Positions 843 to 22,111 of a stretch of DNA of 57,328 nucleotides are shown here, piece by piece. Both the position numbers and the translations under genes were made by a program. A model generated the notes under the pieces. That model did not search any database. It was not told where the DNA came from and saw only the letters and a program-made list of their open reading frames with translations. The stretch is from Kiritimatiellia bacterium. GTDB taxonomy: Bacteria; Verrucomicrobiota; Kiritimatiellia; RFP12; UBA3636. Location: positions 1 through 57,328 of the forward strand of contig JAGCJJ010000092.1 in the NCBI GenBank assembly GCA_017648065.1, given 5' to 3'. Position 1 is the first letter of the stretch, and every line of letters begins with the position of its first letter.

Positions 843-1856
843 TTACAAGCCCTGAAGAATTGTGATAACTACTGTTCCGTAGATATCCTCTGCAGAGCAG
901 CCACGTGATAGGTCATTCACTGGCTTTGCAACACCCTGAAGAACTGGACCATAAGCAGTTGCACCACCTAGGCGCTCTGTAATTTTGTAACAAATATTAC
1001 CTGCCTGAAGGTCAGGGAAGATAAGAACATTTGCATTACCTGCAACTGAGCTGCCAGGTGCCTTTGACTGACCTACAGAAGGAACGATTGCAGCATCTGC
1101 CTGTAACTCACCATCAACATCTGCATCAATACCTAGCTCAGCAAAGCGAGCCTTTGTTAGCTCTGTTGCCTGCTGCATCTTTGATACTAGGTCATGCTTT
1201 GCACTGCCCTTTGATGAGAAGCTTAGGAATGCTAGCTTTGGCTTCTTGCCTAGAAGTGCCTTGTAGCTTGTTGCTGTTGCTAGAGCAATATCAACTAGCT
1301 CCTCAGCTGTTGGGCAAGGATTTACAGCGCAGTCTGCATAAAGAAGTGTTGTATCGCCAGCTGGTGTTGGCTCACGCAAATCCATGATAAAGCAAGAGCT
1401 TGCTAGCTTGATGCCTTTTGCTGTGCCAACGCAGTGGAATGCAGAGCGGAGCATATCTGGTGTTGAAGCAATTGAGCCAGCAACAAAACCATCAACCAAG
1501 CCCTGATTCATCATCATATTACCGAAGTATAGACGATTTGTGCGAACAAGCTTTGTAGCATCCTCTTCTGTCATGCCCTTAGCTTTTCTTCTCTCATATA
1601 GAGCAGCTGTTAGCTGATCACCTAGAGGAGCTGTTGTGTAGTCGATAACCTCAACATTTAGACCCTCTAGAGAAACACCTGCCTTCTCACTAGCTGCAGC
1701 CAACTCCTCAGGAGTAGCTAGAACTGTAAGTTTACAAATTTCATCCTTACCTAGTAGGTATGCTGCCTTAATAACGCGTGGGTCCATACCCTCAGGTAGA
1801 ACGATGTGGCGATTTGCTGCTTTTGCCTTTGGCTTTACTGTTTCTAGAAAATTCAT
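843..1856 (-). CDS. pta: Phosphate acetyltransferase (short form)
   Basis: IVLPEG.DPRV, ADCAVNP, SFSSKGSA, DGELQADAA, ANVLIFPDLQAGNICYK, GPVLQG, DLSRGCS motifs; lies directly downstream of ackA. Confidence 0.95.
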   Translation of the reverse strand: MNFLETVKPKAKAANRHIVLPEGMDPRVIKAAYLLGKDEICKLTVLATPEELAAASEKAGVSLEGLNVEVIDYTTAPLGDQLTAALYERRKAKGMTEEDATKLVRTNRLYFGNMMMNQGLVDGFVAGSIASTPDMLRSAFHCVGTAKGIKLASSCFIMDLREPTPAGDTTLLYADCAVNPCPTAEELVDIALATATSYKALLGKKPKLAFLSFSSKGSAKHDLVSKMQQATELTKARFAELGIDADVDGELQADAAIVPSVGQSKAPGSSVAGNANVLIFPDLQAGNICYKITERLGGATAYGPVLQGVAKPVNDLSRGCSAEDIYGTVVITILQGL

Positions 1857-1891
1857 TTTTTTACCTCAATCTAAAAATATTTACGTTAAGA

Positions 1892-3121
1892 TTAATAGAA
1901 GAACTTAGACATTACAGACTTTGTTTCCTTAGCAATCATAAGCTCTTCGTCTGTTGGGATAATTAGAGCTGTAACCTTTGAACCAGGCTTTGAGATTGTG
2001 CAAGGACCACGAAGTGTTGCGTTTAGCTCTGGATCGATTTCACAACCTAATGCAGCAAACTGCTCAATTAGTGTTGCACGTGCCTCCTTAGAGTTCTCGC
2101 CAATACCTCCTGTAAATACGATAGCATCAGCGCCACCTAGTAGAGCATAATAAGCGCCAACGTAGAATACTAAACGATGTGTCCACATGTCTAGAGCTAA
2201 TTGAGCAGACTCAACACCCTTTGCTGCGTTATTAATAATATCACGCATATCGTTTGAGTTTACTCCACCAACACCCAATAGACCACTCTTCTTGTTTAAC
2301 AAATTATCAACCTCATCTACAGACATACCCTCGCGGATAAGTGTAAACACAACAGCTGGATCAATATCACCAGAGCGAGTACCCATTACAACACCTGCTA
2401 ATGGAGTAAGACCCATTGTTGTATCAAGAACCTTACCATACTTTACAGCAGCGATTGAAGAACCATTACCAAGATGGCAAGTAATAATCTTTAAATCCTC
2501 TGGCTTCTTACCTAGATACTCAGCTGTAGCTAGAGTTACGAAATGATGTGATGTACCATGGAAGCCATACTTACGAATGCCGTACTTCTTATAGAATTCC
2601 TCTGAAATAGCATAGTGGCAAGCACTCTTAGGCATTGTCTGGTGGAAAGCTGTATCAAAAACAGCAATATTTGGTAGACCTGGGAAAAGCTCCTTACAAG
2701 CCTCAATACCGCCAATATTTGGTGGCATGTGCAATGGACCTAGTGGGACAAGCTTCTTTAGCTGAGCCATAACCTCTCTTGTAACGATTGTTGCCTTTGT
2801 AAAGACCTCGCCTCCGTGAAGAACGCGGTGACCCACTGCATCAACCTCCTCAAGGCTCTTTAGAACACCCATCTCTGGATCAATAAGTGCATCTGTTACA
2901 AGACGTAATGCAGCTGAATGATCTGGTGCTGCAACTAGCTGCTCCTGCTTTGCTCCATCACCCTTACGGTAAACCATATTTGCATTATCTGAGCCAATAC
3001 GCTCAACTAAACCAGAGGCAAGCTTAGTCTCTGTTTCAATATTATAAAGAGTAAACTTTAGTGATGATGAACCTGAGTTAATCACAAGAATGGTATCTAT
3101 TTTTTCCATAATTTTTTCCAT
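1892..3121 (-). CDS. ackA: Acetate kinase (alternative start at 3109)
   Basis: LVINSGSSSLKF, VGHRVLHGG, PLHMP, FDTAFHQT, YGFHGTSH, CHLGNGSS, MGTRSGDID, FTGGIGEN, IPTDEE. Confidence 0.97.
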   Translation of the reverse strand: MEKIMEKIDTILVINSGSSSLKFTLYNIETETKLASGLVERIGSDNANMVYRKGDGAKQEQLVAAPDHSAALRLVTDALIDPEMGVLKSLEEVDAVGHRVLHGGEVFTKATIVTREVMAQLKKLVPLGPLHMPPNIGGIEACKELFPGLPNIAVFDTAFHQTMPKSACHYAISEEFYKKYGIRKYGFHGTSHHFVTLATAEYLGKKPEDLKIITCHLGNGSSIAAVKYGKVLDTTMGLTPLAGVVMGTRSGDIDPAVVFTLIREGMSVDEVDNLLNKKSGLLGVGGVNSNDMRDIINNAAKGVESAQLALDMWTHRLVFYVGAYYALLGGADAIVFTGGIGENSKEARATLIEQFAALGCEIDPELNATLRGPCTISKPGSKVTALIIPTDEELMIAKETKSVMSKFFY

Positions 3122-3261
3122 AATTTATTAGTTATAGTTAAGCTATTACCTGCTTTGAGTAAAAGCCAAAAAGTGCCAGAAAGTATACTCTTTTCCTTAT
3201 GCAAAAGCAACATAAAACCTAAATTTGAAAATCACAAACCAAATCTTATTTTATTTTACAA

Positions 3262-3537
3262 TTAGTCTTTTTTTGAAGAATCATTTATATCTGCCCTTAG
3301 CAATTTAATATAACGCTCTAATTCTGTAATTTTTTCTCTCAATGCATTAATCCGAGATAAACTAATTGATACCATAAGCATTACCATAAATGGAACATAG
3401 AGCACCAAATCTTCCAAAATAAAATCTTCCAAACTGGTTGGAACACACAATGGATGAGAAAACATTATGCACAATGGCAACACAAATAATATTGTAGTGA
3501 ATGTCCAACTGATAAAAACAAGCATAATATCCTCCAT
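3262..3537 (-). CDS. Small hypothetical membrane protein (2 TM helices plus coiled tail)
   Basis: 91-aa ORF directly abutting the DUF523 stop codon; two hydrophobic segments and a heptad-like C-terminus (LREKITELERYIKLL). Confidence 0.55.
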   Translation of the reverse strand: MEDIMLVFISWTFTTILFVLPLCIMFSHPLCVPTSLEDFILEDLVLYVPFMVMLMVSISLSRINALREKITELERYIKLLRADINDSSKKD

Positions 3538-3990
3538 CTAAATATTATCTTCTGTAAGAATTTTATCTACACCATATTTTGCAATTACCATCTGAGCCCA
3601 AATACCTGGAGCAAACCCAATTTCTTTTCCTTCATAATCATGAAGCTTTGAACATACCCCACAGCTAGGTGAACGTGCCTTGAGTAAGAAAAATGATATT
3701 TCCTCACCATCCAATTTTGCTAGCATCTGTTCGCAAACAATACGGAGCTTTTCTGTGACATCAACACGGTTTTTTGTGCCCATTACGCGAATCCCCGCCT
3801 CTCCCATATCAACTAACTCAATGGTCTCTCGAGGGATTCCTAAGCCTGCTTCAACCTCTGGACAGAAATGTATAACCTCGTATTGCTCATGTAAAGCATC
3901 AACACCTCCGACCAAATTCTTGTCAGTGCCATCATAACGCGTCTTATAACCAAGCAAACAAGAGCTTACAACTATCTTACTTTTCTTCAT
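3538..3990 (-). CDS. DUF523 / 2-thiouracil desulfurase (TudS) family Fe-S protein
   Basis: SSCLLG..RYDG, CPEVEAGLGIPRE and LKARSPSCG signature motifs. Confidence 0.88.
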   Translation of the reverse strand: MKKSKIVVSSCLLGYKTRYDGTDKNLVGGVDALHEQYEVIHFCPEVEAGLGIPRETIELVDMGEAGIRVMGTKNRVDVTEKLRIVCEQMLAKLDGEEISFFLLKARSPSCGVCSKLHDYEGKEIGFAPGIWAQMVIAKYGVDKILTEDNI

Positions 3991-5602
3991 TTTTTAGCTC
4001 GTAGATTTTCAGCTCAGTAAAGCACTGACCAAAGCTTGGAACTGTTTTAACTAAAGTGTACTTTCGATTCAACACTTCATTAAATTTATCTAGAAGCTCA
4101 GGAGGGGTTTGTGTTGTTGATGGGCAAAAGATTGCAAAACCATAGCCACTGACTGCAGCAACTTCATATTTGCCTGACTCAAGCATTTCCAACATTGTTG
4201 TGAATGTATGAACCTTTCTTGCACGTGCCTCATCATCTGTCATCCAACAGCTATATTCAAACATAGAGAATGGACCTAGCTCCAAACCAGGAGCAACCTT
4301 TCTTTGTGCCTCAACAGCAAGATATGCATCTTGCGTAAATAACACGGCATCCTCAGGTAATTTTTCACGAAGTTCAGCACCTATGCGTTTAAGCTTTAGA
4401 ACCTGTGGTTCATCCTGCATAACAAACCAAAATCTATCCTGACGCTCAAGCACCCAGTTCATACACATAGGAGAACCAACTGCAAAAAACCCTACAGACA
4501 CCAACACAATCAAAACCAAACCTTTATACCATGCCACATTACGAATTGCCAACGCAAAAATTGCTGCAACTATTACTGCAAACAAAGGCATACCTGGAGT
4601 CTGATAATCATCATAAGGGAATGGTGCTGTGCCATGAACAAAAAGAGTTGCGAGAAAGGCAAAGGCAATAATAACAACAAAAAGGTGCTCTATCGCTGTT
4701 GATTTAACCCACCCTGCCACACGAGTAAGCATACCTTTGTTTTGATTTGATTGATGCTGTCTTTTAGTTGTAAACCAAACAACAAGTGCGGATGCTAAAA
4801 ATAATGCAACCATAGGGAAATACGCTTGCAAAAGACGCGATGCAAAACCACCCATTAACACAAGTCTATAGAGCAAATCAGGTGTTTCTCTATGCATATG
4901 ATATGTTTGACAAAATACAAAATTATCGAATGAAGACAAAAGCACAGGAACAAAAATTATTGCAAGCATTACTACGCCAGCAATACCAAATCGGAGCCAT
5001 GCAAAGCGCAACTCTTTCCTTCTGCAGAAGATTAAAAGGCAAAATCCAACTGCTGCCAGAATTACACCTAAAGAAAGTCTTACTCCAGCTGCTAATGCAA
5101 AAAATGCTGCAGCAATCTCAAAGCTAAAGCATTTCCGGCTGACTAAAGAAAACATACCAGCAGAAACAAATAATCCAGCTAAAGCATAGGTCTTTGGAAT
5201 TGCTGTAAAATATGAATATACAGGACAAAGGCCAAGCAATGACATCGCAACTATTGCAGCACTTCCCTTGCGACCATTTGGAGCAAGACAATACACTGCC
5301 ACAGAAGCAAAGAAAATACCAAGCATACCAAGAATTGCGGTAAAGACTCTGCCACCAAGCACACCATTTGAAGCCCACAATCCACTAAAAACGCTATAGA
5401 AATATGGCATTACTGGGGCTTGTGTATATGCAAAATCCTTATATGGTTGCATACCTTGCGCTGTATTAATTCCTGCAAGCAAATACCAGCCTTCATCTTG
5501 GTTTAGCGGGCCAAGCACTACATTTATACAATATAGTGAAAGAATGCCTAGCATAACAATGCCAGCAAGCCAATACAAAAATATCGAGCGCTTCTTTTCC
5601 AT
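3977..5602 (-). CDS. GT-C fold (ArnT/PMT-like) polytopic membrane glycosyltransferase
   Basis: DE motif in the first external loop (NQDEGWY...PYKDF...P), about 11 hydrophobic segments and a soluble C-terminal domain. Confidence 0.65.
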   Translation of the reverse strand: MEKKRSIFLYWLAGIVMLGILSLYCINVVLGPLNQDEGWYLLAGINTAQGMQPYKDFAYTQAPVMPYFYSVFSGLWASNGVLGGRVFTAILGMLGIFFASVAVYCLAPNGRKGSAAIVAMSLLGLCPVYSYFTAIPKTYALAGLFVSAGMFSLVSRKCFSFEIAAAFFALAAGVRLSLGVILAAVGFCLLIFCRRKELRFAWLRFGIAGVVMLAIIFVPVLLSSFDNFVFCQTYHMHRETPDLLYRLVLMGGFASRLLQAYFPMVALFLASALVVWFTTKRQHQSNQNKGMLTRVAGWVKSTAIEHLFVVIIAFAFLATLFVHGTAPFPYDDYQTPGMPLFAVIVAAIFALAIRNVAWYKGLVLIVLVSVGFFAVGSPMCMNWVLERQDRFWFVMQDEPQVLKLKRIGAELREKLPEDAVLFTQDAYLAVEAQRKVAPGLELGPFSMFEYSCWMTDDEARARKVHTFTTMLEMLESGKYEVAAVSGYGFAIFCPSTTQTPPELLDKFNEVLNRKYTLVKTVPSFGQCFTELKIYELKNEEK

Positions 5603-5607
5603 AAACT

Positions 5608-7680
5608 CTATTTTACAAACTCAGCAAAAGGCTTCAATGCTTTAATACCATTTGCATGACGGATAAAATTACCACGGTTTTTAGCTCGCATTGCAAGAAT
5701 TGCCTTTGTAATCTGCAATTCCTTAGAGCTATCTGGCTCCGTACGTAAAATATTATACATCTCTTCAGCAGAAGCTTTAGCTAGTGGAATTGTTATATTA
5801 CGAGTCTCTGTTGAACCAACCTTACGTGCAATGCAAATAAGCTCTCCATTAGCATATCCTTGAGCTTTTACTTCAAAGGTCTTCCCTGCTATTGTAACTT
5901 TCTTAAATGCTATTTGAGTTTGACGAATCAATGCAAAACCAACAGCTTCCACCTCTAGGACAGCAGCATTCAATGTCATTAATATTCCGCGACATTCTGC
6001 ACGATTAACTCCTGGTTTAGAAGCATATTCATCAAATATTTTTTTAACCTCTGCACGAGCCTCTGTGAGTGGCTTTGTTGAAAGCACTTCATATACCTTA
6101 CGAAGCATTTCATCACGAGGAGAAACTTCCTCTACTGTTATTGATGTAGTTTCTGTTTTTTGTGTTTGAGTCACTACTTCTGATGTTGAAGAAACAGAAC
6201 TAGCAACTGTATCACCACTACTTGCTACATTTTCAACAAACTCATCCTCTTCAAAGTCACTAAGTTCAGAAAGATTCATATCCTCTACCGTTGATGCTGC
6301 TACTTCATCAGCTGCAGAATTATCATTAGCAATTTTAGAAGACTTAGATAGAGGAACAACAGGAGCCTCCTCATCCATTACTGGCTGTGAGATTTCAACT
6401 GAACCTGCAGGTCCAAGCTTTTGCACTATTGTATAAATACCACCAACGAAAAGCAGAACACAAACCAATCTTGTTAAAAGCACCACAACTCCAGAAGGAC
6501 GCATATTCACATAGCTCTTATAATTACTTTTGCGAGCTGCCACTGGTTGCTTTGGAATAGAAGTACTTGTTTTTGTCTTTTTTACATCCTGCTTAGCAAA
6601 TTGATTCTTTTGTTCTTCTACTTGTACTGGATTCTGATTTTCAGAAGGTTGAACATTACGGACTGTCTCTGCATAAGCCCCAGATGCTATCGGAGCATTA
6701 TTTACAGGCACTCCAGGAATAATTGGTGTAATAATTGGTGACTGATTTTGTGGTGTAAGTGGTGCCATTGTCAAAGGAGCCACACCTACAGAAAGCAAAT
6801 CAATTGTGCTTCGAACAGCTCCATTAGGTGGCTCCTTACGTAAAGGACGACCTGCAAGAGTATGCTCAATATCCTCTACCACATCTAACCACCAAGCATA
6901 ACGATCATTAGGACTCTTAGCCATTAATCGAGCAAGAATATATACTACATCATCAGAAAGTGTAGGATTCTTGAGCTTTGGATTTGGCAAATGACCAGAA
7001 CGCTGCAGTTCCAAAATTTTCATTGGATCTCGCTCTTCATCAAAAGGAGATGTTCCTGTAAGCATCTGGTACAAAGTTGCACCTAATCCATACATATCTG
7101 CATGAAAATCTATAGTTGGAAGGCAATCTATCTGCTCTGGAGAAGCATAATTCGGAGTGCCAACAACCATACCATCATCAAAAGCAAGTGGGTTTACTCC
7201 AGGTTGAACAATTGTTGCACTATTGAAATTGAATATTTTTATATTACCATCTGCCGAAATACGAATATTTTCAGGCTTTAAATTTCTATGAACAAAACCA
7301 ACCTGTTTCCATGCTGCATCAAGTGCCAAAGCAACTTCCTTAGCTATTTCTAATGCTTTCCCAGCATTATATGGACCATTCTCTTTGATAACTCGGGCAA
7401 CAGATACACTGTAAGCATTTTCAAAAACAATATATGGCAGACCATCTTGTGTAGTTGAAATATCAATCACAGGAGGGAAATTATTATGTTTCAATCGAGA
7501 AATTGCTCGCGTAATTGTAGAAAAATGATTTACGAGATTAGCATCTGCTGCCGAACGATCCTTCATGACCCAAATACTTACATTTCTATCTAAAGAAATT
7601 TGGCGAGCTGTCCAAATCGTAGTATCTGTTGTTCCGCCTGCTTGCTCTAATATCTCATAGCCTTCAATTTTGATTGACAT
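5608..7680 (-). CDS. Hanks-type Ser/Thr kinase-fold membrane protein, apparently a catalytically dead pseudokinase
   Basis: Kinase subdomains are recognisable (HRNLKPENI, GTPNYASPEQ, ADMYGLGATLYQMLTG..PF, LMAKSPNDRY), followed by a Pro-rich linker, a TM helix at about aa 397-419 and a C-terminal external domain. Confidence 0.85.
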   Translation of the reverse strand: MSIKIEGYEILEQAGGTTDTTIWTARQISLDRNVSIWVMKDRSAADANLVNHFSTITRAISRLKHNNFPPVIDISTTQDGLPYIVFENAYSVSVARVIKENGPYNAGKALEIAKEVALALDAAWKQVGFVHRNLKPENIRISADGNIKIFNFNSATIVQPGVNPLAFDDGMVVGTPNYASPEQIDCLPTIDFHADMYGLGATLYQMLTGTSPFDEERDPMKILELQRSGHLPNPKLKNPTLSDDVVYILARLMAKSPNDRYAWWLDVVEDIEHTLAGRPLRKEPPNGAVRSTIDLLSVGVAPLTMAPLTPQNQSPIITPIIPGVPVNNAPIASGAYAETVRNVQPSENQNPVQVEEQKNQFAKQDVKKTKTSTSIPKQPVAARKSNYKSYVNMRPSGVVVLLTRLVCVLLFVGGIYTIVQKLGPAGSVEISQPVMDEEAPVVPLSKSSKIANDNSAADEVAASTVEDMNLSELSDFEEDEFVENVASSGDTVASSVSSTSEVVTQTQKTETTSITVEEVSPRDEMLRKVYEVLSTKPLTEARAEVKKIFDEYASKPGVNRAECRGILMTLNAAVLEVEAVGFALIRQTQIAFKKVTIAGKTFEVKAQGYANGELICIARKVGSTETRNITIPLAKASAEEMYNILRTEPDSSKELQITKAILAMRAKNRGNFIRHANGIKALKPFAEFVK

Positions 7681-7746
7681 AATCTGCTACCTTTGATGTT
7701 TTCTAAATTATTTTTATAGCGCTTATTGGTATAAACGCATATTCAA

Positions 7747-8787
7747 CTAATCCTCTACGGTATAGAACTGATAGATTGTTGTTGACTGGTATACCTCTCC
7801 AGGATTTAGTCGAATTGATGGGAAGCCTGGCTGATTAGGAGAATCTGGAGCATGCTGTGTTTCCAAGCAGAAACCCATACGCTTACCATATCCACGACCA
7901 CCCTTACCAATTACCTTCTTTTGGCTTAAGAAATTACCTGTATAGAACTGAACACATGGCTCTGTTGTCCAAGTTTCCATTTGGCGACCACTCTCTTCAT
8001 CCTCTACAACAGCACATAGTGATAGATTTGCACCTGCAGGCTTACTAATCACAAAATTATGGTCATAACCACCAGCTACTTGAATTGCAGGATGCTTTGC
8101 TCTTACGCGCTCACCAATTTTATGTGGTGTAAGGAAATCCAAAGGAGTACCTTGTACAGGAAGAACTTTTCCATTAGGAATTAATCCAGGTCCAACATCT
8201 GTATAGCGATCGCAGAATAGCTGAACATAGTGATTATCTACATTTTTCTTTGCGCCATTTAAGTTAAAGTATGCATGATGAGTCAAATTTACTAATGTTG
8301 GAGCATCTGTCATTGCCCAATACTGAATTCGCCATGCATTTGTATCTTTTAGAGTGTAAACCACGCGAACAAACAAATTGCCTGGGAATCCACCTTCTCC
8401 TGCTGGGCTCAAACGAGTAAATTCAATTGCTGGGCCTTCTGGAGTATCAAATTGACGAGCATCCCAAATTACTGAATCATAGCCTCCATCGCCACCATGC
8501 AAGCAGCACTTGTTAGGACGCTTTCCTGAATTAAGTGCTAGCTTGTATTCCTTACCATCTAGAGAAAATTTACCTTCAGCAATACGATTTCCTACGCGAC
8601 CGATTAATGCTGAGATATATCCATCCTTAAGGTGATCCTCAGGCTTATCAAATTCAAGTACTACATTTTCAAATTTTCCATTTTTATCTGGCGCAGTAAG
8701 AGACATTACAATGCCTCCAAGGTTGGAAACCTTCATTGTCATGCCATTTTTGTTTGTCAAAGTAAAAATTTGTGGTTTTGCTGTCAT
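7747..8787 (-). CDS. galM: Aldose 1-epimerase (galactose mutarotase)
   Basis: IGRVGNRIA, LHGG, GFPGNL, NLTHHAYFNL, GYDHNF, QFYTGNFL, GFCLETQH.PDSPN. Confidence 0.95.
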   Translation of the reverse strand: MTAKPQIFTLTNKNGMTMKVSNLGGIVMSLTAPDKNGKFENVVLEFDKPEDHLKDGYISALIGRVGNRIAEGKFSLDGKEYKLALNSGKRPNKCCLHGGDGGYDSVIWDARQFDTPEGPAIEFTRLSPAGEGGFPGNLFVRVVYTLKDTNAWRIQYWAMTDAPTLVNLTHHAYFNLNGAKKNVDNHYVQLFCDRYTDVGPGLIPNGKVLPVQGTPLDFLTPHKIGERVRAKHPAIQVAGGYDHNFVISKPAGANLSLCAVVEDEESGRQMETWTTEPCVQFYTGNFLSQKKVIGKGGRGYGKRMGFCLETQHAPDSPNQPGFPSIRLNPGEVYQSTTIYQFYTVED

Positions 8788-8906
8788 AAAATTCTCCTAA
8801 AAAAAGAAAGCTTTTTCCTTACCTATTTATATTAGCAAAAACCAATCGTCTAAAACAATGAAAAACTGAAAATTTATCACTGGTTATTTACAAAAAACAG
8901 CAATTA

Positions 8907-9016
8907 TTCAGCCTTATTAAAAGACACTGATACGGCCTAGCCCTACTCGTAAGTGAGGTTGGGTCGAAAACAACAATAAAATGAATTAAATTAGAGTCTA
9001 AGTGTCTAATGTTGAA
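8907..9016 (+). other. Unassigned structured intergenic element (candidate small RNA)
   Basis: Nested pairing ttcagc/gttgaa, agacact/agtgtct, and cggcctagcc (8933-8942)/ggttgggtcg (8957-8966). Three G-U pairs in the inner stem work only on the + strand. No family recognised. Confidence 0.3.
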
Positions 9017-9059
9017 AACAAATTATTTAATTTTACCGCATACTATTACAAAGCTATGC

Positions 9060-10847
9060 TTATTCTCGTTCAGATAGCTCTGCCCAACGGTCAACTAGCT
9101 GCTCCAGTTGTTGCTCCAGTTCTGCCATTTGTTGGGCCTTTTGTACTGCAATTGCAGGCTGAGTTGCAAATAATTGCGGATCATCTAGCTCTGCTTTTAA
9201 TGCAGCTAATTCCATTTCTAGGCCCTCAATCTTTTCAGGAAGCGCAGCCAGCTCTCGCTTTTCCATATAGCCAAGACGATTTGATTTTTTCCGTTCTGGC
9301 TCTGACTTTTCCTGTTCCTTCTGCTCTGCTTTTTGCTTATCTTGCTCTGCCTTTTTCTCAACCTTACGTTGACGCAGCCAATCTTCATAACCTCCTGGGA
9401 ATACCCCAACAGATCCATCTCCCTCAAGCACAAGCGACGAAGTGACTACATTATCCAAGAAGGTTCTGTCATGGCTTACAAGTATTAAAGTACCACCATA
9501 ATTTAATAATTGCTCTTCAAGTAGCTCAAGTGTCTCAATATCTAAATCATTTGTCGGCTCATCCATAACCAACAAATTACCTGGATTTAGAAATAACTTT
9601 GCCAAAATAAGTCGAGCACGCTCTCCTCCTGAAAGTGCACTGACTGGACATTTAGCACGCTCTGGAGTAAATAGAAAATCCTGTAAATAGCTGAAAACAT
9701 GGCGGCTGACACCATTTACCATCACTTGGTCCTTACCCTCTGCAAGGTTACTAATCACAGTGCCGTTCATATCAAGTGCGGCATGAAGCTGATCAAACAT
9801 AGCTAGCTCCACTCTGCTACCCAATTCAATCTCTCCAGAGGTTGGTTGTAGCTCTCCGGCAAGTAACTTTAGAAGTGTTGTTTTTCCTGTTCCATTCTTT
9901 CCAATTACACCAACACGCTCTCCTCGAAGAATATTTCCTGTGAAGGCTTTTACTATTGGCTTATCATCGGAGTATGAGAAAGACAAATCTTTTACCTTAA
10001 CCACCTGCATACCAGAGCTTGAAGCAGCTCCGATTTGCAGCTTACTTACACCTGACTGTTGTCTACGTAACCTAAACTCCTCACGTAACTTACGTAAAGC
10101 CTCCACACGCCCCTCATTTCTTGTAGTACGCGCTTTTACACCACGGCGAATCCAGGCCTCTTCCTTTTCAAGTTTTTTGCCCTTGCGAGTCCAATAAACC
10201 TCTTCATCTGCCAACAGTTCAGCCTTGCGCTTAAGGAAGGTGCGATAATCACAATCCCAACCCGCAAGACGGCCTCTATCAAGATCAAGAATGCGTAAAG
10301 CTGTCTTTTGAAGAAAAGCTCGGTCATGCGTTACAAACAAGCAGGCACAACGTAATTTTGCAAGCACGCCTTCAAGAAAGATAATAGACTCAATATCAAG
10401 ATGATTTGTAGGTTCATCAAGTAATAATAATTGTGGATCAGTAGCGAGAGCTGCAGCTAAGCGTACACGACGGCGCATTCCACCAGAAAGGCTGTTAAAT
10501 TCAGCAGAACCATCTAATCCTAAAAGCGTTACATAACGGGCAGCAAGTGGAGTAACAACTCCGTCAACAAGAAGAAGATCCTTTGTTACAATATCCATCA
10601 CTGTTCCCGGAGTGTCTCCAGGTACATCCTGAGAAAGAAAAGCTGTACGTAAATTTGGTGCACGAATTATCTCTCCAGCATCAGGCTCGATAATTCCTGC
10701 TACCAACTTTAACAACGTAGATTTACCCTCGCCATTTCGACCGGTAATACATGTGCGCTCTCCCTCCTCTACGGAAAAAGTTACATCCTCAAGGACAGAT
10801 GGACCACCAAATCCTATATTTACATTACGAAAAGTTATTAATGCCAT
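9060..10847 (-). CDS. uup: ABC-F family ATPase, Uup-like
   Basis: Two ABC domains (GRNGEGKST / LSGG / LLLLDEPTNHLD; GKNGTGKTT / LSGGERAR / DEPTNDLD), the Uup linker EAWIRRGVKARTTRNEGRVEAL, and a C-terminal coiled coil (EKRELAALPEKIE...RWAEL). Confidence 0.9.
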   Translation of the reverse strand: MALITFRNVNIGFGGPSVLEDVTFSVEEGERTCITGRNGEGKSTLLKLVAGIIEPDAGEIIRAPNLRTAFLSQDVPGDTPGTVMDIVTKDLLLVDGVVTPLAARYVTLLGLDGSAEFNSLSGGMRRRVRLAAALATDPQLLLLDEPTNHLDIESIIFLEGVLAKLRCACLFVTHDRAFLQKTALRILDLDRGRLAGWDCDYRTFLKRKAELLADEEVYWTRKGKKLEKEEAWIRRGVKARTTRNEGRVEALRKLREEFRLRRQQSGVSKLQIGAASSSGMQVVKVKDLSFSYSDDKPIVKAFTGNILRGERVGVIGKNGTGKTTLLKLLAGELQPTSGEIELGSRVELAMFDQLHAALDMNGTVISNLAEGKDQVMVNGVSRHVFSYLQDFLFTPERAKCPVSALSGGERARLILAKLFLNPGNLLVMDEPTNDLDIETLELLEEQLLNYGGTLILVSHDRTFLDNVVTSSLVLEGDGSVGVFPGGYEDWLRQRKVEKKAEQDKQKAEQKEQEKSEPERKKSNRLGYMEKRELAALPEKIEGLEMELAALKAELDDPQLFATQPAIAVQKAQQMAELEQQLEQLVDRWAELSERE

Positions 10848-11217: not shown

Positions 11218-13002
11218 ATGGTTCAACAACACAACAAAATTTCTCGACAGACAGATTTTGTAGCATTCAATGCAATTGAGCATGTAGAAGCTTCTTTGAA
11301 TTATCTAACTAAAATGACTGATGCAAAATTGGGATATCTTCCTTATTGGTTTGTATCATTAAGCGGAGGACCTGCATTTGCTGAACATAATCGAATAGAT
11401 GATGCAGAGCTTGTCGCATCCTGGTATGAAGGAATTTCCTCAGCCCGTGAAATTTTAAAGACGCACAATGGTGCAGAAGTTGAACAAGCGCTTTACGATA
11501 AGCTAATAAAAGAAGGCTGGGATTCAAAAACAGGACTTCGCTTCCCTATTCAGCGCCCTTGGTCCCCAGAGCTTACATACTGCACTATTCATGAACAAGC
11601 ATATGTTCTTTCCGCACTTGTTCGAGCTATTTCTATTGACCCTAAAGATAGCAGTGCTATAAAGCGTGCAAAAGGTCTTGTTGATGGATTAAACAAGCTC
11701 GTAACAAAGCATACTTCTCGCGCTATGTGGTTCGGACAAATTGAATATACGGAGCCATCTCTTTCTTTCCCTCTTGATGTTTACATTTTAGGTAAAGGTT
11801 TCAGCAATGAAATTAATACAGGTTGGGGCGATAGTGTACTAAGAAATGCAGCTATCATCACACCACTTGTTGACTATTATGAATTAACAGATTATGAGCC
11901 TGCATTAGAGCTTGCTATTGGACTGTCAAACCACCTAACAACATATAGCCACTACTTGAATTTCAAAATGGAATTTTTCGGACATGTTAATTCTGCACTA
12001 TGGATTTCTTCTGGCTTAATCAAACTAGGTCGAATTCTTACTAATGATCGCTTTGTAGCTCGTGGCAAAGCAATTTATGATTATGTTCGTAATTATTGCT
12101 CTGCATTTGGATGGGTTCCAGAGTTTATGCATTGGCAGCTGTTAGCTGACGAGCGCTGCGAAGCTTCATGTATTAAAAATCTAATGCGCAGCGCACAAGA
12201 GCTTGTACTAAGTGGTTTCCCTGAATATTGGGATGACATTCATCGTTTCTGGCGCAATCATCTAGCAAACAGCCAGTTAACCTACACCAATTTTATTAAG
12301 GAAGACAATTCTATTGAGGACACAGAACAGCGCACTTTCAAAAATATGCGTGAGCGTGTTAAAGGAGCTGGTTTTGGAGCATCAATGCCAAACACCGTTG
12401 AAATGAATAGATTCAACACAATTTCAGGCTCTTCTTCTGCAGCTATTCCTATTGCTATGCTTATGGCATGGAAATCAACTATTGAAAGTAATAAGAATAT
12501 GGTTCTTATTAACTTCCCAGTTAATATTGAAACCCCTGATGTTAAAGTTGAGGTTGGCTACCCTAATGCCGGTTATATCCGCGTAAAGCTTAATCGAGAT
12601 TGTCGCGTAATTCTACGTATCTATCCATGGATGCCATCCCCTCATGAAGGAACAATTGACGGACGCCCTGCATGCTTGGAGCGTAGAGATGATTTAATTG
12701 CATTCTCCCCATCAACAAAGGGAACAATTATTGAACTAAGACACGAATTAAAAACACGCCGTATCATGGAAAATGTTGGTGGTATGAGCTATTTTGGTTT
12801 ATGGCGAGGTCCGGAAATGGTTGATATTTTACCTCACGCCAGCTATGGTTACAGACTATATCAGCGTGCTGTTGACGGAGAAAAAGACTATCCAAATATA
12901 GCTAGCAATATTTCTCCACTGAACCGAAAAATTGAAGTTATTCCAGAGCCTCAACCATTGAAGGAAACAAGATTAAATCGTCGCCGCGCACCACGTTCAT
13001 AA
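11218..13002 (+). CDS. Cytoplasmic GH127/GH146-like (beta-L-arabinofuranosidase-fold) protein with a degenerate active site
   Basis: 594 aa with SD-like ggaaagga. Helical-barrel-type region with GHVNS, GWVPE and CEASC, then a beta-sandwich (YPNAGYIRV...LRIYPW...WRGP) as in GH127-like proteins. Family call is from motif memory. Confidence 0.5.
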   Translation: MVQQHNKISRQTDFVAFNAIEHVEASLNYLTKMTDAKLGYLPYWFVSLSGGPAFAEHNRIDDAELVASWYEGISSAREILKTHNGAEVEQALYDKLIKEGWDSKTGLRFPIQRPWSPELTYCTIHEQAYVLSALVRAISIDPKDSSAIKRAKGLVDGLNKLVTKHTSRAMWFGQIEYTEPSLSFPLDVYILGKGFSNEINTGWGDSVLRNAAIITPLVDYYELTDYEPALELAIGLSNHLTTYSHYLNFKMEFFGHVNSALWISSGLIKLGRILTNDRFVARGKAIYDYVRNYCSAFGWVPEFMHWQLLADERCEASCIKNLMRSAQELVLSGFPEYWDDIHRFWRNHLANSQLTYTNFIKEDNSIEDTEQRTFKNMRERVKGAGFGASMPNTVEMNRFNTISGSSSAAIPIAMLMAWKSTIESNKNMVLINFPVNIETPDVKVEVGYPNAGYIRVKLNRDCRVILRIYPWMPSPHEGTIDGRPACLERRDDLIAFSPSTKGTIIELRHELKTRRIMENVGGMSYFGLWRGPEMVDILPHASYGYRLYQRAVDGEKDYPNIASNISPLNRKIEVIPEPQPLKETRLNRRRAPRS

Positions 13003-13067
13003 TATAGATATAGAATATCGCGTCGTAGATATTAGTCAATGGGGCTCCCCCATCAACCTAATCTGTT

Positions 13068-13101
13068 GGGTCGAGGCTTTTGCTCTCGGCCCTTCTGTTT
13101 T
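13068..13101 (+). terminator. Intrinsic terminator or attenuator hairpin between the GH127-like gene and murD
   Basis: gggtcgag-gc-tttt-gc-t-ctcggccc followed by ttctgtttt. Confidence 0.6.
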
Positions 13102-13122
13102 AATAAAATCCAACGTATCATT

Positions 13123-14508
13123 ATGTCTTTACCAACACAATTCAAAAACAGAAATCATGCACTAGTACTTGGTGCAGGCATCAGTGGATTATCTGCTGCA
13201 TCTCTTTTAATATCCAAAGGATATAAAGTAACTGTTTTGGGCAGTTGCAATAACGAAGAGAAAAAGACACAACTGGCAACACTTGGCGTCAAATTTGATG
13301 TTTCGGAAATGGACTCATACATTCAAAACTTTTGTGATTCCAAAGAAAACACATCTAAAATTTTTGCTGTACTAAGCCCTGGCATCAGCCCAAAATCTAA
13401 TCCAATCAAACTATTGTATCAAGCACAAATCCCTATTATTGGAGAAATGGAATTAGGGCTTACTCTTGGAGATAAATTACTCAAATTTATTGCAATAACA
13501 GGAAGTAAAGGGAAGAGCTCAATCGTAAAACTTATTGCGGATACACTTACCCAAGCAGGTAAACCAGCCATACCATGTGGAAATTACGGAACAGCCACCT
13601 GCAGTGTCGCAGAAACGAATGAAAGTGTAATTCCTGTCGTTGAATGCAGCAGCTTTCAATTAGAAACCACAACCTCTGAATTTTCACCTTATGCGGCTCT
13701 GTTATTAAATCTTTCTCCAGACCATCTCGATAGACATTCCTCTATGGAAGAATATCGTGATGCTAAACTACGTATTTTCTCACACTGCTCAGGAATAAAG
13801 CTTATTCCTGAAACTTGTGATTACAATATCGACGAGTCAATTACAAAACAAGGCATGCAAATTGATTCATTCACACGTTTTGGCACCTCCCCTTCTTCTG
13901 CTTACAAGTATATTGAAGGTAAAATCTACATCTCTGCAACAGGAGAATATATAAACATATCTGGAAGCTACTTTGACAATTCAATTATTGGCCCCGGAGC
14001 AGCTGCTGCAGTAGCAATTCTATTAGAATATGGTTTAACTATCAAACAAATTGAAGACGGCTTTAAGAATTTTGTTCCTCTAAATCACCGAATGCAAAAA
14101 ATACGCGAATTAGAAGGAGTTACATTCATTAATGACTCAAAAGCCACTAGCATAGCAGCACTTTTTGCTGGTTGCAAAATGGCATCAAAAGCCAAAAAAC
14201 CGATTTATTTGATTGCTGGTGGAAAATTAAAAGAAAAAATATCATTAAACGCAAATGATTTAGTAGATTTTTACGTTAAAAAAGTGTATATTATAGGTGA
14301 ATGTTTAGAGGAAATGGCGAGCGCATGGGAAAAAGACATCGCTATTGAGCGTTGCTACACCATGGATGTCGCTGTAAATCAAGCATTTAAGGCAGCAAAA
14401 GAGGAAGAAAGCATTATTCTTCTTTCTCCAGGAACTGCCAGCTTTGATCAATTTAAATCTTATAACCAACGTGGAGAATGCTTTACTAAATTGGTAGAGC
14501 AGCTATAA
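13123..14508 (+). CDS. murD: UDP-N-acetylmuramoyl-L-alanine--D-glutamate ligase (461 aa; start revised from 13039)
   Basis: LVLGAGISG, SPGI, AITGSKGKSS, GNYG, ECSSFQLE, LNLSPDHLDRH, HRMQ, NDSKAT, LLSPGTASFDQF...RG. Confidence 0.93.
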   Translation: MSLPTQFKNRNHALVLGAGISGLSAASLLISKGYKVTVLGSCNNEEKKTQLATLGVKFDVSEMDSYIQNFCDSKENTSKIFAVLSPGISPKSNPIKLLYQAQIPIIGEMELGLTLGDKLLKFIAITGSKGKSSIVKLIADTLTQAGKPAIPCGNYGTATCSVAETNESVIPVVECSSFQLETTTSEFSPYAALLLNLSPDHLDRHSSMEEYRDAKLRIFSHCSGIKLIPETCDYNIDESITKQGMQIDSFTRFGTSPSSAYKYIEGKIYISATGEYINISGSYFDNSIIGPGAAAAVAILLEYGLTIKQIEDGFKNFVPLNHRMQKIRELEGVTFINDSKATSIAALFAGCKMASKAKKPIYLIAGGKLKEKISLNANDLVDFYVKKVYIIGECLEEMASAWEKDIAIERCYTMDVAVNQAFKAAKEEESIILLSPGTASFDQFKSYNQRGECFTKLVEQL

Positions 14509-14545
14509 TTCGGATTATAGTCTTCCAAACTCAAGGAGTATATAC

Positions 14546-15922
14546 ATGAACAAAAAACTAACTACAGCTATGGCTGGTAATATTGCTCTAGCAATGATTA
14601 TGGCAACAGGCTGCCAGTCTCTAATGACAAACCGTACAGCAATGGGCTCAGGCGATGATGATCCTTATTCTTCAGCACCTGTAGTTAATATCGAAGAAAG
14701 AGGAACCTCTACTCCTGACCAAATAACACCAAAAACACTTGGTGAAGAAGCTTATGCAACAGTAGCAGAGGCAAAGGAAACTGCTAAGAAAGCAGAAGAT
14801 GATACTGAGGCAAAGATTGCTGAGGCTGAAGAAAGTGCTAATGAAAAGATTGCTGAGGCAGAAAAGGATGCTAAAGAGGCTGTAGATGCTGTTGACGAGC
14901 AAGCAAAAAAAGAGCCTTCATATCAAAAGTATATTATTCCTGCAGATTACAAGAACCCAACAGAAGGTCTAACTCCAACTAAGGAGCGCCCAGATCGCTC
15001 TGCTAAAGAAGAAGAAGAAAAAGCTGAAGCAGCAGATGCTCCTGCAACTGTTGACGAAGACGGCAATTTCACATACATTGTAAAATCAGGTGACTGCCTA
15101 TCTGTTATCGCAAATAGCAATGGTGTAAAAACAAAAGAGCTAGCAAAAATCAACAACATCAATGTTGACACTCCTATTTTTGTTGGTCAAAAGCTAAAGA
15201 TTCCTGCAGGTCGCAAGCCTTTCGAATCAAAGAAGGAAGAAAAAGTTGAGACTCCTGCAGATGATTCTGTTTACGTAGTAAAATCTGGCGATTGCCTATC
15301 TGTCATCGCTAAAAACTATGGCGTAAAGACATCTGATTTCATGAATGAAAACAATTTAGAAAATGCAAATCAAATTTATGTTGGCCAAAAGCTAAAGATT
15401 CCTGGAAAGGCAAAAAAAGCTCCTACTGCAGAGACACCTGCAACTAACGAGCCTGCTCCAACAAAAGAACCAAAGAATGAGGTTGCAAATGAGGCTCCTG
15501 CTCCTGTTGCAGAAAAAGAGCCAGTTAAGAATGACCCATTCGATCTAGATCAGAAGACAGAAGATAAATTTGCTCCTGCTGCTCAGGAAGAGGCACCAGC
15601 TCCTGCTACAGAAACAAAGGAAAAGACAGAGGCAATCGTAGTTCCTCCTGCTCCTGTTGAGGCAGAAGAAACTGTAGAAGAGGCAGACCCATTTGATATT
15701 GATAGCGTTATTCAAAACTTCGAGAACAATGCACAGCAAAAAGCTAACGAAGTAATCGAGAAAATTGAAAACGTAAAAGTTGAAAAAGGTGACACTCTTG
15801 AGCTTATCGCAGCAAACTACAGCACAACTGCTGAAGAGCTACGCAAGCTAAATGGCTTTGACAGCTCTAAGAAGCTAAAGGCTGGCGAAATCATTAAGAT
15901 TCCTGCTCAGACAACAAAGTAA
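14546..15922 (+). CDS. Lipoprotein with three LysM domains and acidic Ala/Glu/Pro-rich linkers
   Basis: Lipobox MATG-C23. LysM domains at about 15074-15205, 15272-15403 and 15773-15904 (Y.VKSGDCLSVIA...GQKLKIP twice; VEKGDTLELIA...GEIIKIP). SD aaggag. Confidence 0.9.
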   Translation: MNKKLTTAMAGNIALAMIMATGCQSLMTNRTAMGSGDDDPYSSAPVVNIEERGTSTPDQITPKTLGEEAYATVAEAKETAKKAEDDTEAKIAEAEESANEKIAEAEKDAKEAVDAVDEQAKKEPSYQKYIIPADYKNPTEGLTPTKERPDRSAKEEEEKAEAADAPATVDEDGNFTYIVKSGDCLSVIANSNGVKTKELAKINNINVDTPIFVGQKLKIPAGRKPFESKKEEKVETPADDSVYVVKSGDCLSVIAKNYGVKTSDFMNENNLENANQIYVGQKLKIPGKAKKAPTAETPATNEPAPTKEPKNEVANEAPAPVAEKEPVKNDPFDLDQKTEDKFAPAAQEEAPAPATETKEKTEAIVVPPAPVEAEETVEEADPFDIDSVIQNFENNAQQKANEVIEKIENVKVEKGDTLELIAANYSTTAEELRKLNGFDSSKKLKAGEIIKIPAQTTK

Positions 15923-15935
15923 ACCCTACAGAATA

Positions 15936-17102
15936 ATGAAGCTGGCAATAAGTCTACTGATTACATCTGTACTTTTACTTTCATCGATTGGATTAGTAAT
16001 GATTTTTAGCGTGAGCTCTGTTGAAGGGCTCCGCATTTACAATGACTCATACCACTTCTTAAAAAATCAAGCATTATTCTTTATTGCAGCACTTACTGTT
16101 GCAACAATTATTTTTGCCATTCCTCTTGAAAAATGGTTTTCAAAAGGAATGGTTTATTTTTTAATCGGAGCTATTCTCATTGGTCTGATTGTTGTACATA
16201 TTCCTGGATTAGGCAAAGAAATCAAAGGCTCAAACCGTTGGGTACAACTTCCTGGAATTAGCCTTCAAACCTCTGAATTTATTAAAATCTCTGTCATCAT
16301 TTTAATGGCATGGTGGCAGGGTCAGCCATGGCGAAAAAATGCGGCTTTCAAAGAGGGCCTTCTTTATCCGGGAATTGGAGTTGGACTCGTTTGTGTTGGG
16401 TTACTATTACAACCAGACTTTGGCTCTGCAATTATGCTAGCTCTTATCTGCTGTTTAATGATGATTACAGCAGGAGTAAACATCCGCATTCTTGCAACAA
16501 TGGGAGCAACTGCTCTTGCCATTATCACTATTCTTGTTATCCATGACTCAGTACGCATCAAACGTGTTGTTCCAGTATTCTTGCTAAATATGCCTGAAGA
16601 AGTAGACCCAGAACTTCTCTCTGGACCACTCTACCAAGTTATTAGTGCAATCTCAGCCTTTAAGCATGGCGGTATTATTGGGAAAGGGCTAGGCAACAGC
16701 ATCTACAAAGAGCACTACATCCCTGAATACCATACCGACTTCATTCTCTCTATGATAGGAGAAGAACTCGGCATTATAGGCACAGCAAGTTGTGTTATCT
16801 TGATTCTTACTATTTTTATTTGCGGTCTATATATCAGCTACAAGGCAGAAAATTTTCAGCACCGCCTTTTAGCTCTCGGAATGACTTTACAAATATCCCT
16901 CTATTCTATCGTAAATACAGGTGTAGTTTGCGGACTATTTCCAACAAAAGGTTTGGCAATGCCATTTCTGAGCTATGGGGGAAGTAATCTGCTTTCATCA
17001 TTCATGGCCATCGGTTTTATTCTTGCGGTTGGAAGATATATTATTGAGAATGAAATCCCTGACAATACACCCCAACACAATGACACATTTTGGAATATGT
17101 AG
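15936..17102 (+). CDS. ftsW: SEDS peptidoglycan glycosyltransferase FtsW
   Basis: GLVMIFS, GSNRW, QTSEFIK, QPDFGS, GKGLGNS, IPEYHTDFI..IGEELG, PTKGLAMPFLSYGGS; sits in murD context. Confidence 0.9.
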   Translation: MKLAISLLITSVLLLSSIGLVMIFSVSSVEGLRIYNDSYHFLKNQALFFIAALTVATIIFAIPLEKWFSKGMVYFLIGAILIGLIVVHIPGLGKEIKGSNRWVQLPGISLQTSEFIKISVIILMAWWQGQPWRKNAAFKEGLLYPGIGVGLVCVGLLLQPDFGSAIMLALICCLMMITAGVNIRILATMGATALAIITILVIHDSVRIKRVVPVFLLNMPEEVDPELLSGPLYQVISAISAFKHGGIIGKGLGNSIYKEHYIPEYHTDFILSMIGEELGIIGTASCVILILTIFICGLYISYKAENFQHRLLALGMTLQISLYSIVNTGVVCGLFPTKGLAMPFLSYGGSNLLSSFMAIGFILAVGRYIIENEIPDNTPQHNDTFWNM

Positions 17103-21980: not shown

Positions 21981-22111
21981 TTTTATTCCTATTCTTAGGT
22001 GTTACAACAATACAATAACCATGCAAACGATGCCCTATTGCTCCCTTTGCACGATTATTTTTTTATAACCTATTATTATATTAAAAATTTATTTCTTTAA
22101 TGATGGGACAA

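Follow-up and report, generated by a model that had tools for sequence, protein, structure and literature searches.

Results

A PknB-like domain without its catalytic residues

The subject of this study is a membrane pseudokinase gene in a 57,328-nucleotide stretch of a Kiritimatiellia bacterium genome (assembly GCA_017648065.1, contig JAGCJJ010000092.1, positions 1 to 57,328; the whole stretch is hereafter called the window). Its product is probably a maintained, non-catalytic receptor or scaffold in which a dead PknB-like domain has been preserved; within this reading, a link specifically to the glycosyltransferase of the GT-C fold that is encoded next to it is put forward tentatively. The gene occupies an uninterrupted open reading frame (ORF) on the minus strand, running from an ATG start to a TAG stop at 5608..7680 and encoding 690 aa. 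The coordinates of the gene, its parts and its neighbours are collected in Table 1.

A Pfam alignment confirmed the kinase assignment, with residues 22-262 matching positions 15-253 of the 263-position Pkinase profile PF00069 (E 1.7e-27; 97 bits, the cut-off being 31.7), and the nearest solved relative is the kinase domain of Mycobacterium tuberculosis PknB (1mru; E 1.7e-29 by HMMER, 8.3e-45 with a profile). A first-pass annotation of the window had described VSIW, HRN, NFN and a degenerate Gly-rich loop in place of the canonical motifs. All four were found again at their positions, and their assignment to catalytic positions is backed by a residue-by-residue HMMER alignment to 1mru. The β3 Lys, the HRD Asp and the DFG Asp, which together mark a catalytically competent Hanks kinase, are all absent. 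The alignment also revealed a further catalytic loss that the annotation had not listed, namely that of the αC Glu, replaced by Ile56. Rescue by the Lys of the adjacent VMK (residues 38-40), which the annotation had considered, is unlikely, as K40 aligns with R43 of PknB and is R, H, L, T or G elsewhere in the family.

The C-lobe motifs GTPNYASPEQ (residues 174-183), DMYGLG (195-200) and RY (260-261) are in place as the annotation had them, and APE Glu182, αF Asp195 and RY Arg260 are intact, invariant structural anchors. With its kinase fold kept, its catalytic residues missing and the gene under selection, the protein qualifies as a pseudokinase by sequence criteria.

The losses are shared by the family and the domain is under purifying selection

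We surveyed the source assembly (2.06 Mb, 88% complete) together with 40 relatives. The gene was matched in 35 of the 41 genomes at E<=1e-40; of the 24 relatives that share the taxonomic family of the source genome, 23 had it. Besides full-length orthologues, a word-index search returned graded, more distant proteins sharing both the kinase-like and the C-terminal domain. At every one of 20 family loci the β3 Lys is missing (Trp in 14; Leu, Val or Ala in 6), and the αC Glu, the HRD Asp (Asn in all) and the DFG Asp are each missing as well; Lys and both Asp are likewise gone from all six further family loci from named genomes with a complete N-terminus (L028-L033). The case in which orthologues retain K/HRD/DFG and only this copy has relaxed is thereby excluded, and chance is ruled out because the same substitutions recur in independent genomes.

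In an alignment of the 14 sequences bearing Trp at β3, W37, H131, R132, N133, K135 and N151 are invariant, as are L30 and D73, and the activation segment from N151 to E182 is mostly so. Compared with that of PknB, this segment is complete apart from a one-residue gap. At the position of the phosphorylated activation-loop Thr pair of PknB, the pseudokinase has no Thr and carries the invariant Asp168. L30 and D73 align with L33 and D76 of PknB, residues of its back-to-back dimer.

Ratios of nonsynonymous to synonymous substitution (dN/dS, Nei-Gojobori) were limited to within-genus pairs, comparisons across genera or across subclades being saturated (pS>0.75) and discarded. For the kinase-like domain (residues 1-285) the ratio was 0.03-0.18 in 11 pairs, the least saturated of which gave dS 0.29, dN 0.010 and omega 0.034, and it rose to 0.09-0.38 in the outer domain and to 0.2-0.87 in the two linkers. 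Within-genus amino-acid identity was 82-85% for the kinase-like domain versus 16-54% for the second linker, and no stops or frameshifts occurred in the 20 loci. Constraint is thus strongest in the dead kinase-like domain. The annotation had named conserved Trp, Asn and Asn substitutions with dN/dS below 1 as support for a functional pseudokinase, and both were observed: W37, N133 and N151 are present in all 14 Trp-bearing orthologues, Lys and both Asp are missing at all 20 loci, and the domain is under purifying selection.

The catalytic residues were lost long ago and in steps

An exhaustive search of 1.84e9 representative proteins with a C-terminal-domain profile matched only 30 clusters, 26 of them at E<=1e-10. 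All 12 full-length carriers have a Pkinase domain and all 12 are without Lys/Asp/Asp, so that in the full-length representatives examined the C-terminal domain is always joined to a dead kinase domain. The remaining matches are short pieces without Pfam families or proteins of tandem Ig-like repeats; the tandem matches in P0253, P0264 and P0265 lie on PKD, Big_9 and fn3 repeats and were taken as β-rich noise. The closest named relatives are labelled as Kiritimatiellae or Kiritimatiellia metagenome-assembled genomes (MAGs), and more distant ones as Lentisphaerae or Verrucomicrobia.

In a rapid maximum-likelihood phylogeny covering 38 kinase-like domains, which came from a short search with long outgroup branches and with the four trait columns kept in, the 25 dead sequences form one clade (SH-aLRT 100). 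Its basal subclade has Arg at β3 together with HRN, the DFG Asp being kept in three of four members and replaced by Glu in the fourth. The DFG Asp is lost as well in a nested clade of 21 rows (support 99), and within a further nested clade of 14 rows (support 89) Trp is fixed at β3.

We also sampled 120 other genomes of the order. Of these, 29 belong to the family of the source genome, and 27 of the 29 were matched by the C-terminal-domain profile at E<=1e-5, as against none of 91 across eleven other families. The best kinase-like matches in these other families were mostly dead (9 of 11, with HRN, FRN, LRN or VRN; the other two canonical), and the HRN lineage is therefore older than the family. 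Many of the dead kinases of the other families keep DFG, and some keep the Lys.

HRN was also seen in two further places: an unrelated 651-aa protein (P0039) combines it with an intact β3 Lys and DFG, and a Victivallis-labelled locus (L042, 3001-3804) has Arg/HRN/DFG. The HRD Asp-to-Asn change may recur independently in kinases of the Planctomycetes-Verrucomicrobia-Chlamydiae (PVC) type.

Membrane topology, linkers and the outer domain

The single transmembrane segment reaches a Kyte-Doolittle value of 2.51 in a 19-residue window and is preceded by four K/R and no D/E and followed by two K/R and seven D/E, a charge pattern that places the kinase-like domain inside and the C-terminus outside. 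Both this helix and the outer domain had been noted in the annotation and were borne out. Just past the kinase-like domain, the linker carries an S-T-[IVL] motif whose Thr292 is invariant in all 29 family sequences; the motif with its Thr is also present in 9 of the 11 order-level relatives, including both active kinases. Thr292 is a candidate phospho-acceptor.

The outer C-terminal domain was modelled by AlphaFold2 with high confidence (pLDDT 94.1, pTM 0.87) as four helices, a four-stranded β-meander and four more helices. Neither Pfam nor NCBIfam recognises it, even with the threshold relaxed to E<=10. A Foldseek search of the PDB found nothing at E<=1e-3 (best 0.19, Sso7d, 65 columns), and a wide VIA-align scan gave no whole-domain match (best Z 6.4 across 56 helical residues). 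Likenesses of its β-part (55-126) to a designed SH3-like barrel (Z 6.0) and to the WYL domains of PafBC (5.9) and BrxR (5.5), like these best matches, lie below the noise level that the tool gives for such folds, and no fold was assigned. A structural search of the ESM Atlas found the domain only at the C-termini of other Verrucomicrobiota-labelled kinase-domain clusters (TM 0.71 and 0.60). As a lead, this distribution points to a PVC-specific sensor module.

Genes around the pseudokinase gene

An aldose 1-epimerase gene lies upstream of the pseudokinase gene at all 20 family loci, and the order epimerase, pseudokinase, GT-C protein is kept at all 14 that reach far enough downstream, as well as in L028-L033. 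In 10 of these 14 loci at most 6 nt separate the stop codon of the pseudokinase from the start of the GT-C gene, or the two genes share 4 nt; at the remaining four junctions the choice of start is ambiguous. At the 11 order-level loci outside the family, neither an epimerase nor a GT-C gene is nearby.

The downstream protein has no usable Pfam or NCBIfam match at E<=10, although at least 962 homologues were matched at E<=1e-3; those with names are mostly "hypothetical" proteins of Kiritimatiellia or Lentisphaerae, and one entry each is labelled "ArnT-like" and "DUF2029". Its AlphaFold2 model (pLDDT 90.1, pTM 0.91) matches ArnT (5f15) over the full length (Foldseek E 2.9e-8, TM 0.59), all 33 Foldseek matches at E<=1e-3 are GT-C glycosyltransferases, and a feature search of the Atlas pointed in the same direction with PMT_2/GT39 clusters. 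By these matches the protein has the multi-pass GT-C fold with a C-terminal domain on the outside. In GT-C enzymes acidic residues of the first outer loop are catalytic; the first outer loop of the downstream protein contains LNQDEGWY, including Asp36-Glu37, which is invariant in 23 sequences. Prediction of a complex between the GT-C protein and the transmembrane helix with the outer domain scored 0.00 in two runs without controls and carries no weight either way.

A 150-aa ORF belonging to the 2-thiouracil desulfurase family shares its first 14 nt with the end of the GT-C gene; it is possibly the last gene of the operon and may be translated together with the pseudokinase and the GT-C protein. 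Past a gap come acetate kinase and phosphotransacetylase. A promoter and terminator scan of 3000-9300 found sites no more frequent than in shuffles and so left the operon ends undefined.

Several variations were seen at related loci. In one named MAG (L033) the GT-C gene appears as two overlapping ORFs (4890-5183 and 5057-6382, plus strand), which may reflect either a frameshift or faulty assembly. Two same-genus relatives (L029, 395-2964; L030, 157-2624) have two tandem aldose 1-epimerase paralogues upstream of the pseudokinase, ~93% and ~40% identical to the epimerase of the window. Elsewhere in the window, a 594-aa ORF without a Pfam family at E<=0.001 (11218-13002, plus strand) lies just upstream of genes for a MurD-like ligase, a three-LysM protein and FtsW/RodA (13039-17102), and the G+C content of 20001-22000, which overlaps an 881-aa ORF (19335-21980, minus strand), is 0.462 as compared with ~0.39 elsewhere.

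Table 1. Position of the pseudokinase gene, its parts and neighbouring genes in the window.
Feature	Residues	Position	Strand	Basis or remark
Whole pseudokinase gene	1-690	5608..7680	-	Stop codon 5608-5610; full-length orthologues 54-99% identical
Hanks-type pseudokinase domain, cytoplasmic	1-285	6826..7680	-	PF00069, PknB alignment, dN/dS
Degenerate Gly-rich loop AGGTTDTT	14-21	7618..7641	-	PknB GFGGMS aligns with GGTTDT
VSIW	34-37	7570-7581	-	Motif re-located in the window
Trp37 codon, replacing the β3 ATP-binding Lys	37	7570..7572	-	Aligned to the Lys of PknB VAVK
Ile56, replacing the αC Glu (partner of the β3 Lys)	56	7513..7515	-	PknB alignment
HRN for catalytic-loop HRD	131-133	7282..7290	-	N133 aligned to the Asp of PknB HRD
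NFN for Mg-binding DFG	151-153	7222..7230	-	N151 is the DFG Asp position, N153 the DFG Gly position
Juxtamembrane linker, cytoplasmic	286-396	6493..6825	-	Pro/Gln/Asn-rich, poorly conserved
S-T-I motif just past the kinase-like domain		6802..6810	-	Contains Thr292
Single transmembrane helix	~397-420	6421..6492	-	Hydropathy, flanking charges
Linker, extracytoplasmic	421-524	6109..6420	-	Fast-evolving; 429-524 is 27% Ser/Thr and 24% Asp/Glu
C-terminal domain, extracytoplasmic, 166 aa	525-690	5611..6108	-	AlphaFold2 model
Aldose 1-epimerase (GalM-like), upstream		7747..8787	-	PF01263, E 7.1e-86
GT-C-fold glycosyltransferase, downstream, multi-pass	541 aa	3977..5602	-	ATG 5 nt past the pseudokinase TAG
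2-thiouracil desulfurase family ORF	150 aa	3538..3990	-	PF04463, E 1.3e-32

Other Hanks kinases of the genome

The five other Hanks kinases of the genome have retained the Lys, the catalytic Asp and the DFG, and in four of the five the αC Glu is clearly present too, so canonical kinase chemistry is used elsewhere in the organism. Among the active paralogues L002 is the closest, at 31% identity (E 3e-39), and it shares the layout of kinase, linker, transmembrane helix and tail. The genome also contains five FHA-domain ORFs; a search of the 88%-complete assembly for a PP2C phosphatase with one model (PF13672) found none.

Two further kinase-like proteins were recorded. One active Hanks kinase (L005, G000:C93:28231-31839, ORF 1477-3216, plus strand) is fused to an FGE-sulfatase/SUMF1-like domain (PF03781, E 1.2e-24), which is an unusual pairing in a lineage where sulfatases may matter. 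A 759-aa frame (L007, G000:C16:38922-42227) matches Pkinase weakly (E 6.5e-4, over profile positions 3-105) and is possibly a second, more degenerate kinase-like protein.

Discussion

We propose that the dead kinase domain is kept as a structural module of a bitopic inner-membrane receptor. Trp37 and the uncharged Asn133 and Asn151 would fill and neutralise the nucleotide pocket, which is predicted to bind neither ATP nor metal because the Lys, the Glu and both Asp are gone and a Thr-rich loop stands in place of the Gly loop; the domain would then neither bind ATP-Mg nor transfer phosphate. The outer domain would bind a periplasmic or envelope ligand, and the dead domain would offer a docking or allosteric surface to one of the five active Hanks kinases, to the five FHA proteins or to both, and phosphorylation of the invariant Thr292 may be the means. 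A fixed, active-like docking surface, suited to dimerisation with an active kinase or to adaptor binding, is suggested by the invariant activation segment, Asp168 and the L30/D73 pair. The output of the dead domain would bear on the presumably co-expressed GT-C enzyme and hence on envelope or protein glycosylation, as with mycobacterial MviN-FhaA-PknB; the tie to envelope glycosylation is drawn from the GT-C-fold gene abutting or overlapping the pseudokinase gene.

Several observations weigh against this proposal. A galM/GT-C neighbourhood is seen within a single taxonomic family, and the apparent link to the GT-C enzyme may reflect local inertia of gene order rather than function. Thr292 is found in two active relatives too and hence is not specific to pseudokinases. 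Occlusion of the pocket by Trp37 is a prediction from sequence, and Lys135 of HRxK and, in this genus, Asn138 of KPEN are retained, with which some non-canonical nucleotide chemistry is possible.

The alternative that survives best keeps the dead receptor and drops the GT-C enzyme: the protein would serve the Ser/Thr phospho-network alone, whether as a decoy substrate or by dimerising with the active paralogue as an allosteric partner, and the gene order would be inertia. Related HRN-type dead kinases at 9 of the 11 other-family loci do without galM and GT-C genes, the paralogue L002 shares the layout of the pseudokinase, and the alignment of L30/D73 with the dimer residues of PknB fits such a partnership. 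The junction, however, stays within 6 nt or a 4-nt overlap across 8 genera, over which pseudokinase identity falls to ~31-36%, and this is tighter than plain inertia usually maintains, leaving the alternative rather unlikely.

Somewhat less probable still is an atypical but active enzyme, in which relocated or different residues would bind the nucleotide and transfer a phosphoryl or nucleotidyl group, as in WNK-type kinases or SelO-type AMPylases. The constraint on the whole domain, including His131, Arg132, Lys135 and the activation segment, would suit such an enzyme, as would the isosteric and invariant Asp-to-Asn changes and the presence of Lys40 three residues past the lost Lys. Yet five separate nucleotide- or metal-binding elements have been lost together, the Lys40 column is basic in canonical kinases too and varied within the family, Asn138 of KPxN, kept in the pseudokinase, is Thr, Ala or Ser in many orthologues, and the N-lobe strand region holds no family-specific invariant Lys or acidic pair.

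A role in phage defence, as a kinase of the PD-T4-6 or MADS/BREX type, is very improbable. The protein does match PADLOC PD-T4-6 (E 3.3e-48, 163 bits) and the NCBIfam models MAD6 (E 2.2e-26) and PglW (E 1.1e-8), but these are generic fold matches: canonical kinases of the genome score higher on the PD-T4-6 models (230 and 223 bits), the NCBIfam scores are far under cut-off, the housekeeping neighbours have no PADLOC match, the position is syntenic across 8 genera and the catalytic residues are missing. We therefore rejected a defence role. Although all catalytic motifs are lost, a decaying gene, that is a recent kinase pseudogene whose frame is still open, is excluded for practical purposes because the dead domain is conserved more strongly than the rest of the sequence (dN/dS 0.03-0.18), with the same losses fixed in every orthologue examined and no stop or frameshift in 20 loci.

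The non-catalytic receptor or scaffold thus remains the reading we favour. In its most specific form, the dead kinase would be an obligatory regulatory subunit of the GT-C enzyme, the outer domain would sense an envelope or glycan cue, and a relay without phosphotransfer through the kinase-like domain, running via active Hanks kinases or FHA proteins recruited by Thr292, would switch the glycosylation of envelope or proteins; we regard this form as a long shot. Were it true, it would represent a mode of bacterial transmembrane signalling undescribed outside mycobacterial MviN and independently arisen in the PVC clade. A true link to the GT-C enzyme would by itself provide a second, independent case, after MviN, of pseudokinase control over envelope glycan assembly.

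Bacterial Ser/Thr pseudokinases are described as largely unexplored experimentally in a 2025 review (PMC12599244). The gene adds a well-delimited pseudokinase family with a Trp/HRN/NFN signature under strong purifying selection. Living intermediates, from R/HRN/DFG through L/HRN/xFx to W/HRN/NFN, order the loss of the catalytic residues and, if this order is true, would make a rare resolved series showing the stepwise death of a receptor kinase. With a putative outer sensor domain without known relatives and a concrete candidate output in the abutting, Pfam-less GT-C glycosyltransferase, the family offers a testable system for dead-receptor-kinase signalling in a gut-associated lineage known mainly from metagenomes.

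Comparison with known systems

The review (PMC12599244) and a preprint presenting an atlas of bacterial Ser/Thr kinases name seven pseudokinase families: ActPs1, ActPs2, ActPs3, GLW, CP1, DYD and DLHK. The terms Kiritimatiell-, Verrucomicrob-, Lentisphaer-, Planctomycet- and HRN are absent from the searchable text of both, and in the literature on bacterial pseudokinases we found no account of a Trp/HRN/NFN family or of a pseudokinase-GT-C pairing, the family tables of the atlas being outside the search. The published descriptions set the present proteins apart from ActPs3 and GLW, and probably from CP1, and they may form an undescribed family of the PVC clade; this is uncertain, as the atlas family tables may hold members.

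GLW pseudokinases, mainly from Proteobacteria, resemble the protein in having Leu or Trp in place of the β3 Lys, but according to the review they carry a GLW motif at the HRD position, whereas here His-Arg is kept and only the Asp is changed. CP1 proteins are given in the same review (PMC12599244) as cytosolic and linked to COG3899, whereas this protein has a transmembrane helix and no COG3899 domain. EssB/YukC of type VIIb secretion is likewise bitopic, with a cytoplasmic pseudokinase fold serving as a structural part of a membrane machine; the present pseudokinase differs in its outer domain and in having no type VII secretion genes nearby.

The downstream protein shares its full-length fold and the outer-loop Asp36-Glu37 with the GT-C enzymes ArnT, PMT and STT3, and differs in being without a Pfam or NCBIfam model. 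In a PDB sequence-profile ranking of the pseudokinase, PknB, StkP and PknA were nearest (E 8e-45 to 1e-32), and MviN and EssB were not among the best 60 matches. With the receptor kinases PknB and StkP the protein shares the series of kinase domain, juxtamembrane linker, one transmembrane helix and outer sensor-like domain; unlike them it has no PASTA repeats by Pfam and has lost all catalytic residues. The PASTA-kinase model NF033483 (Stk1/PknB) scored only 184 bits against a cut-off of 450, over profile positions 9-277 of 563.

The closest parallels are to MviN of M. tuberculosis, a member of ActPs3. Both are membrane-anchored Hanks pseudokinases with three degraded motifs and an extracytoplasmic domain, and both are linked to an envelope enzyme that handles lipid-linked sugars, here putatively through the neighbouring GT-C gene. 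According to the review (PMC12599244), bacterial pseudokinases degraded in all three motifs are nearly always without ATP binding, bulky aromatics (F724/W789) fill the ATP pocket of MviN, much as Trp37 takes the place of the Lys here, and MviN residues analogous to L30/D73 are named. The differences are equally clear. MviN is fused to a flippase and its outer part is a carbohydrate-binding module, whereas here a separate protein with a novel outer fold adjoins the GT-C gene; the hallmark of ActPs3 is a deletion of the activation loop, which here is full length and highly conserved; and MviN is actinobacterial, whereas the present pseudokinase is from the PVC group. For phosphorylation and FHA recruitment of the MviN type the genome has candidate genes, with both active kinases and FHA proteins as in the MviN-PknB-FhaA system. 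The nearest functional analogue of the pseudokinase is the mycobacterial MviN-FhaA-PknB system.

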